IMG/VR virus record: IMGVR_UViG_2531839433_000005 | Span: 1-49,376 of that record | Length of the DNA: 49,376 nucleotides | Source of the DNA: a virus | Lineage: Duplodnaviria; Heunggongvirae; Uroviricota; Caudoviricetes | Direction: 5' to 3' (one strand) | In this document: one piece after another, positions 38,497 through 41,400 of the stretch | Position numbering within the stretch: the stretch's first letter is position 1 | Layout of the letters: the number at the start of each line of letters is the position of its first letter | Notes under the pieces: generated by a model | Database searches by the model: none | Told to the model about the DNA's origin: nothing | What the model saw: the letters and a program-made list of their open reading frames with translations, nothing else | Made by a program: the position numbers and the translations under genes

Positions 38497-41400
38497 ATGG
38501 GTAAAGGCAGCAGTAAGGGGCATACTCCGCGCGAAGCGAAGGACAACCTGAAGTCCACGCAGTTGCTGAGTGTGATCGATGCCATCAGCGAAGGGCCGAT
38601 TGAAGGTCCGGTGGATGGATTAAAAAGCGTGCTGCTGAACAGTACGCCAGTGCTGGACAGTGAGGGGAATACCAATATCTCCGGCGTCACGGTGGTGTTC
38701 CGGGCCGGTGAGCAGGAGCAGACACCGCCGGAGGGATTTGAATCCTCCGGCTCCGAGACGGTGCTGGGTACGGAAGTGAAATACGACACGCCGATCACCC
38801 GGACCATCACGTCGGCAAACATTGACCGACTGCGTTTTACCTTCGGCGTGCAGGCACTGGTGGAAACCACCTCAAAGGGGGACAGGAATCCGTCGGAAGT
38901 CCGCCTGCTGGTTCAGATCCAGCGTAATGGTGGCTGGGTGACGGAAAAAGACATCACCATTAAGGGTAAAACCACCTCGCAGTATCTGGCCTCGGTGGTG
39001 GTGGGTAACCTGCCGCCGCGCCCGTTCAATATCCGGATGCGCAGGATGACGCCGGACAGCACCACAGACCAGCTGCAGAACAAAACGCTCTGGTCGTCAT
39101 ACACCGAAATCATCGATGTGAAAAGGGCTACCCGAACACGGCACTGGTCGGCGTGCAGGTGGATTCGGAACAGTTTGGTAGCCAGCAGGTGAGCCGTAAT
39201 TATCATCTGCGCGGGCGTATTCTGCAGGTGCCGTCGAATTATAACCCGCAGACGCGGCAATACAGCGGTATCTGGGACGGAACGTTAAAACCGGCATACA
39301 GCAACAACATGGCCTGGTGTCTGTGGGATATGCTGACCCACCCGCGCTACGGCATGGGGAAACGTCTTGGTGCGGCGGATGTGGATAAATGGGCGCTGTA
39401 TGTCATCGGCCAGTACTGCGACCAGTCAGTGCCGGACGGCTTTGGCGGCACGGAGCCGCGCATCACCTGTAATGCGTACCTGACCACACAGCGCAAGGCG
39501 TGGGATGTGCTCAGTGATTTCTGCTCGGCGATGCGCTGTATGCCGGTATGGAACGGGCAGACGCTGACGTTCGTGCAGGACCGACCATCAGATAAGGTGT
39601 GGACCTATAACCGCAGTAATGTGGTGATGCCGGATGATGGCGCGCCGTTCCGCTATAGCTTCAGCGCCCTGAAGGACCGCCATCATGCCGTTGAGGTGAA
39701 CTGGATTGACCCGGATAACGGCTGGGAGACGGCGACAGAGCTTGTGGAGGACACGCAGGCCATTGCCCGTTACGGTCGTAACGTCACGAAGATGGATGCC
39801 TTTGGCTGTACCAGTCGGGGGCAGGCACACCGCGCCGGGCTGTGGCTGATTAAAACAGAACTGCTGGAAACGCAGACCGTGGATTTCAGCGTCGGCGCAG
39901 AAGGGCTTCGCCATGTACCGGGCGATGTTATTGAAATCTGCGATGATGACTATGCGGGGGTCAGCATCGGCGGGCGCGTGCTGGCGGTGAACAGCCAGAC
40001 CCGGACACTGACGCTCGACCGTGAAATCACGCTGCCATCCTCCGGTACCACGCTGATAAGCCTGGTTGACGGAAGTGGCAATCCGGTCAGCGTGGAGGTC
40101 CAGTCCGTCACCGACGGCGTGAAGGTAAAAGTGAGCCGTGTTCCTGACGGCGTTGCCGGATACAGCGTATGGGGGCTGAAGCTGCCGACGCTGCGCCAGC
40201 GCCTGTTCCGCTGCGTGAGTATCCGTGAGAACGATGACGGCACGTATGCCATCACCGCCGTGCAGCATGTACCGGAAAAAGAGGCCATCGTGGATAACGG
40301 GGCGCACTTTGACGGCGACCAGAGCGGCACGGTGAATGGTGTCACGCCGCCAGCGGTGCAGCACCTGACTGCCGAAGTCACCGCAGACAGCGGGGAATAT
40401 CAGGTGCTGGCGCGCTGGGACACGCCGAAGGTGGTGAAGGGCGTGAGCTTCCTGCTCCGTCTGACCGTAACAGCGGATGACGGCAGTGAGCGGCTGGTCA
40501 GCACGGCCCGGACGACGGAAAACACATACCGCTTCACACAACTGGCGCTGGGGAACTACAGGCTGACAGTCCGGGCAGTAAATGCGTGGGGGCAGCAGGG
40601 CGATCCGGCATCGGTATCGTTCCGGATTGCCGCACCGGCAGCGCCGTCGCAGATTGAGCTGACACCGGGGTATTTTCAGATAACCGCCACGCCGCATCTT
40701 GCGGTTTATGATCCGACGGTACAGTTTGAGTTCTGGTTCTCGGAAAAGCGGATTGCGGATATCAGGCAGGTTGAAACCAGCGCGCGTTATCTTGGTACGG
40801 CGCTGTACTGGATAGCCGCCAGTATTAATATCAGGCCGGGCCATGATTATTATTTTTACGTTCGCAGTGTGAATACCGTTGGCAAATCGGCATTCGTGGA
40901 GGCTGTTGGTCGGCCGAGTGATGATGCTTCCGGCTATCTGGATTTTTTCAAAGGCGAGATAGGGAAAACCCATCTGGCTCAGGAGTTGTGGACGCAGATT
41001 GATAACGGTCAGCTTGCGCCTGACCTGGCTGAAATCAGGACGTCCATTACGGATGTCAGCAATGAAATCACACAGACCGTCAATAAGAAACTGGAAGATC
41101 AGAGTGCAGCGATCCAGCAGATACAGAAGGTTCAGGTTGATACAAATAATAACCTGAACAGCATGTGGGCCGTGAAGCTGCAGCAGATGCAGGACGGACG
41201 CCTTTATATCGCGGGTATCGGTGCCGGTATTGAGAATACGCCAGCAGGAATGCAGAGTCAGGTGCTGCTGGCGGCAGACAGGATTGCGATGATTAATCCT
41301 GCGAATGGCAACACAAAGCCGATGTTTGTTGGTCAGGGCGATCAGATATTCATGAACGAAGTGTTCCTGAAACGCCTGACGGCCCCCACCATTACCAGCG

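Follow-up and report, generated by a model that had tools for sequence, protein, structure and literature searches.

Gene J of the lambdoid prophage analysed here is very probably a plain loss-of-function pseudogene, from which one C was deleted in codon 210 and which is inherited within L6, a clone of enterotoxigenic E. coli (ETEC) with worldwide distribution. All positions given below refer to the window, i.e. the whole analysed stretch of 49,376 nucleotides, which combines a Rac-like early region with a lambda-like block of head and tail genes. The gene map of the window was taken by overlay on the annotation of strain 504239. Its left part comprises, in this order, int, xis, exo, kil, a CI-type repressor gene, cro, replication genes, Q, a tRNA cluster, holins and an M15 endolysin. 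The right part continues with an IS66-family element, terminase, portal, protease, decoration and major capsid proteins, and the tail genes, which end with H, M, L, K, I, J, lom, the side tail fibre gene and an invertible tail-fibre segment. Six complete E. coli genomes agree with the window at 100% over its first 25 kb (504239, 67-1, WS1933D, TW11681, S1-NGR-02-A and LR883000, the last being isolate L6_E562_ETEC). The window is not strain 504239 itself: a single SNP separates the two at 4652, and about 44767..47885 is exactly inverted. No exact match to positions 36000..49376 was found among the complete genomes of the collection, the best match being WS1933D with 99.6%.

Table 1. Coordinates of gene J, its lesion and the two resulting open reading frames in the window.
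Feature	Position	Strand	Description
Gene J (central tail fibre / tail-tip attachment protein), pseudogene	38497..41975	+	3479 nt, one base under the 3480-nt intact alleles
1-bp deletion site	39123..39124	+	C gone between two A residues, codon 210 (CAG, Gln), according to alignments
N-terminal J ORF, 231 aa	38497..39192	+	ATG start; 209 authentic J residues plus 22 out-of-frame residues; stop TGA 39190..39192
C-terminal J ORF, 940 aa	39153..41975	+	From the mechanical ORF list, counted from the first GTG

Intact versions of J from E. coli ECE313 and Z1323CEC0015 and from the phages PhiR55_1 and lambda were aligned with the window J, and in all four alignments the same C is missing at the same place (Table 1). 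Where the intact genes read GTGAAA-C-AGGGC, the window reads GTGAAAAGGGC. Over a longer stretch, ...GATGTGAAACAG(G/T)GCTACCCG... of the intact genes corresponds to ...GATGTGAAAAGGGCTACCCG... in the window J or, split at the lesion, GATGTGAAA-C-AG(G/T)GCTACCCG corresponds to GATGTGAAAAGGGCTACCCG. Relative to the three alleles of 3480 nt (ECE313, PhiR55_1 and Z1323CEC0015), the deleted C is the sole indel across the whole 3.48 kb of the gene, next to 101 to 151 substitutions. Relative to lambda J, no other indel occurs before about nt 2490, with the mosaic C-terminal third starting near 40988. The lost base is equivalent to lambda nt 16132, with which codon Gln210 of lambda J begins. DNA identity to intact J genes amounts to 95-97%, and the closest intact gene among the matches listed is that of E. 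coli Z1323CEC0015 with 97.1%.

Because of the loss of this one C, J is split into two ORFs. Translation yields ...IIDVK and then, after Lys209, the 22 foreign residues up to the premature TGA, and in the proper J frame no stop occurs from 39009 until the natural one at 41975. When the C was put back in silico, a J protein of 1159 aa with no internal stop was obtained. The gene thereby shows what defines a frameshift pseudogene, namely an indel of a length not divisible by three relative to intact close homologues that leads to a premature stop. A sequence-only reading of the same DNA had placed the frame change near 39121..39130, and the alignments locate the missing C within this interval. 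It had also given the two ORFs with the coordinates and sizes in Table 1, which are identical in the ORF list, and by comparison with lambda J had suspected that a single base was missing; the lambda sequence it used turned out to be correct on alignment to lambda J, and the intact J genes confirm the 1-bp deletion. Regarding the homopolymer context of the site, which it had named as a point to check together with the lambda alignment, a lone C is lost next to a run of A4, and there is no homopolymer of at least six bases in 38497..39200.

Analysis with Pfam assigned FNIII-A_GpJ alone (residues 86-207) to the 231-aa ORF, and Phage-tail_3, Ig_J, Ig_J_second, Phage_Tail_Tip and Ig_GpJ_C to the 940-aa ORF. 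Over both ORFs together, all gpJ Pfam domains were found with E-values of 1e-30 to 1e-42, and both ORFs match PHROG 31, 'central tail fiber J'. According to the annotation, J is preceded by the tail assembly gene I and followed by lom, in the order H-M-L-K-I-J. The window J therefore has the full domain series and the operon position of the gpJ class, and in place of the one continuous ORF of about 1130-1160 codons required for a functional J it has ORFs of 231 and 940 aa. Judged by domains, synteny and DNA identity, it is a lambda-type J in which only the requirement for a continuous ORF fails. Lambda J (gpJ, NP_040600.1) has the same place in the tail operon (…H-M-L-K-I-J-lom-stf) and the same Pfam series, 966 of its 1132 residues are identical in the repaired window J, and around the lesion the two sequences differ only by the missing C and at one G/T position. 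Unlike lambda J, the window J lacks a base in codon 210 and has no continuous ORF, and the repaired protein is 27 aa longer (1159 versus 1132 aa); the DNA diverges only from about 40988 onwards.

The break point lies in the linker directly after FNIII-A, and the truncated protein is without the hub (Phage-tail_3), both Ig-like domains, the central fibre and the C-terminal receptor-binding domain. In lambda, J is essential for nucleation of the tail-tip initiator and for receptor binding. With only 209 authentic J residues left, tail assembly should therefore be abolished. A second close J copy able to complement the defect was not found in the six genomes, each of which has one close J place. 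Most likely, the prophage cannot build infectious tails, and we infer that without full-length J no tail-tip initiator would be formed and that at best tail-less, non-infectious heads would result. A non-infectious prophage is what the essential role of J in lambda genetics leads one to expect, and the single J copy per genome fits with this.

The sequence-only reading had considered a sequencing error as an alternative. An error of sequencing or assembly, with the C present in the real DNA and J intact, could be suspected since long-read assembly, which tends to introduce single-base indels, was used for several of the complete genomes, and since the deletion adjoins short A and G runs. However, what is missing is a single C between A's and not part of a miscounted homopolymer, and the 501 bases around the lesion are matched at 100% by six complete genomes, the only six at 100% among the matches listed. 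About 4,390 genomes match at least 80% of this 501-bp query; the other top-ranked matches listed for it span 502 bases and are therefore without the deletion. Full-length J is identical in the six complete genomes except for one SNP, at 41269 in TW11681. Their origins are given as India, Saudi Arabia, Egypt, Switzerland, the Sanger ETEC L6 reference E562, and TW11681; the genomes with the lesion span four named countries and no fewer than three accession series. E562, the representative of ETEC lineage L6 (ST2332, CFA/I + CS21, STh), came from a traveller to Mexico, was isolated in 2000 and was sequenced by PacBio RSII combined with Illumina (PMC8085198), so that one lesion-bearing genome combines both technologies. 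The exact 231-aa product, which is diagnostic of this lesion because it holds the 22 out-of-frame residues, was present on 117 contigs and appears in 203 index blocks (NCBI draft genomes, Logan run assemblies and ENA), one of these contigs being a 213-kb metagenome scaffold (ENA). Also, NCBI's PGAP pipeline flags J as 'frameshifted' in all six RefSeq genomes. As the database records reproduce the lesion in independent sequencing, with six complete genomes and 117 contigs, an error is extremely unlikely and is excluded as far as the database evidence reaches.

With the deletion taken as real, it has to be asked whether the split gene still works. It is very unlikely that it supplies a little functional J, either by a leaky, low-level -1 shift at GUG-AAA-AGG or by termination-reinitiation at GTGA; if it did, the ETEC L6 prophage would continue to yield infectious or transducing particles, albeit rarely. 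A -1 shift is needed to rejoin the frames, and one occurring anywhere in 39009..39192 would do so, at the lesion with Gln210 changed to Lys as the only consequence. The junction codons are GTG-AAA-AGG, and AGG, a rare Arg codon, is shift-prone in E. coli; with AGG in the A site, tRNA-Lys would re-pair on GAA, followed by AAG-GGC... Furthermore, the premature TGA overlaps a GTG in the J frame (39189..39191), and the 2.8 kb of J downstream are still open. On the other hand, a scan of the overlap 39009..39192 detected no X XXY YYZ slippery heptamer in the zero frame, the overlap has no homopolymer of six or more, the fold of 39118..39210 does not stand out from shuffled controls (z = -1.34; matched by 25 of 200 shuffles), and the sequence downstream of the lesion is the same as in intact J alleles. 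A conserved two-ORF J was not found, the intact alleles fetched being single ORFs, and none of the other homologues examined has the same deletion, these being single ORFs or broken elsewhere; among them, the split arrangement is confined to one clonal lineage. A programmed -1 frameshift of the lambda G-T or dnaX type was rejected, as heptamer, significant structure and conservation are all missing, and so was programmed transcriptional slippage, for which the usual run is at least seven A or T and not A4. No recognisable Shine-Dalgarno sequence precedes the in-frame GTGs at 39153, 39159, 39189 and 39228, which makes independent expression of the 940-aa ORF unlikely, and in a reinitiated product the link from FNIII-A to the hub would be 23 residues short. 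The AAA-AGG junction and the GTGA overlap leave room for slight -1 leakage or reinitiation without being evidence for either. An alternative of another kind accepts the inactivation and attributes its fixation to selection, the disarmed tail having domesticated the prophage, with cargo (lom, kil, immunity) kept and spread stopped. The lesion is indeed fixed in all six complete genomes with this prophage, and the remaining prophage is largely open. However, clonal fixation needs no selection, a tail defect leaves host killing by induction and thus an unclear benefit, identical J alleles offer no signal to test (dN/dS, parallel hits at the same site), and the other J pseudogene seen is broken at a different site in an unrelated allele. 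Selection is therefore regarded as unlikely.

The reading we prefer is the plain, clonally inherited loss of function. One C was most probably deleted from J of a lambdoid prophage in an ancestor of a clonal ETEC lineage, L6, which is represented by E562, 504239, 67-1, WS1933D, TW11681 and S1-NGR-02-A, and the lesion was then passed on vertically. In the annotation overlay, the other head, tail and lysis genes carry no pseudogene flag, and inside J there are no lesions besides the 1-bp deletion. For these reasons J looks like the one clear structural lesion of the prophage, inactivated recently relative to the age of the prophage, which is at an early stage of decay. The open 2.8 kb remainder of J fits a recent mutation and would also be expected under some selection on the C-terminal part. 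Dating of the deletion from the nearest intact J is impossible, given that J alleles are mosaics and that identity to the closest intact one does not exceed 97.1%.

Frameshifted J genes in other cryptic or defective lambdoid prophages of E. coli are flagged as pseudogenes by PGAP and likewise carry a single-base indel leading to a premature stop, whereas the loss of the codon-210 C is, among the homologues examined, specific to the ETEC L6 prophage. One of the best ten full-length matches, in the unrelated E. coli strain Z1322HEC0010 (NZ_CP148746.1, 1501..4979), is an independently frameshifted J with a 1-bp deletion at the equivalent of window position 41594 and an intact codon-210 C. This shows that J frameshift pseudogenes recur in E. 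coli prophages. The lambda G-T programmed -1 frameshift, which is conserved across long-tailed phages, resembles the split J in that two overlapping ORFs of the tail operon are joined by a -1 shift. It differs by its canonical GGGAAAG heptamer, the J split being without a slippery site and, among the homologues examined, present in one clone only. In contrast to the J lesion, the G/T overlap of the window has GGGAAAG at 33107..33113 (G 32709..33131, T 33113..33547).

Several further features of the prophage were recorded. The C-terminal tail-fibre segment (44700..47952) is bounded by 95-nt inverted repeats at 44700-44794 and 47858-47952, and the segment is exactly inverted in the window relative to 504239 and four other L6 genomes. 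The side tail fibre has 991 aa in the orientation of the window versus 1057 aa in that of 504239. WS1933D has the segment in the window's orientation, but with 53 mismatches in 44846..46053. The DNA invertase gene beside the segment is a stump of 64 aa (48001..48195) with the N-terminal half of the Resolvase domain; since only 64 aa are left, the flip either is older than the truncation or depended on another invertase acting in trans. Amid fragments of tail-fibre assembly genes (48223..49376) at the prophage's right end lies a gene for a class I SAM-dependent methyltransferase (48382..49050, - strand), which has the appearance of cargo within a tail-fibre region that has been scrambled.

The IS66-family element was identified as ISCro1 (19373..22071), flanked by an 8-bp target duplication, GAATCTAA, at 19365-72 and 22072-79. 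It is located in the late operon between the lysis genes and the terminase block, in opposite orientation, and is common to all six L6 genomes. Disruption of a lysis gene by ISCro1 was considered and rejected, since the element is intergenic and both flanking small ORFs match full-length PHROG profiles. The CI/LexA-type repressor gene on the - strand is annotated in RefSeq with 112 aa (6235..6573) and the S24 peptidase domain only. Its ORF reaches an ATG at 6873, corresponding to 212 aa, and the N-terminus of this longer protein reads like a helix-turn-helix motif. A truncated repressor as an additional defect was dismissed, as the ORF runs on to 6873; the 112-aa version is probably a mis-called start and not a truncation. 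The cro-like gene (6965..7208) is flagged by PGAP as 'frameshifted', and there is an ORF of 92 aa at 6917..7195. Downstream of Q, the tRNA cluster (17331..17640) comprises a tRNA with CAT anticodon (annotated as Ile), Thr-TGT and Gly-TCC. ARAGORN adds a tRNA-Lys(TTT) at 17408..17484, which has no support from PGAP or the Rfam tRNA model (E <= 0.01) and is for this reason possibly a degenerate tRNA or a false positive.

The frameshift in J is genuine but commonplace, and public databases already annotate it; as PGAP already flags the gene as 'frameshifted', it adds nothing new beyond RefSeq. Broken J genes are common in E. coli prophages, and the single-base deletion described here is a clean clonal marker of ETEC L6. 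From the domains lost and the role of J in lambda, the lesion marks the ETEC L6 prophage as very probably unable to make infectious particles, which is relevant for judging which ETEC prophages may be mobile or transduce.
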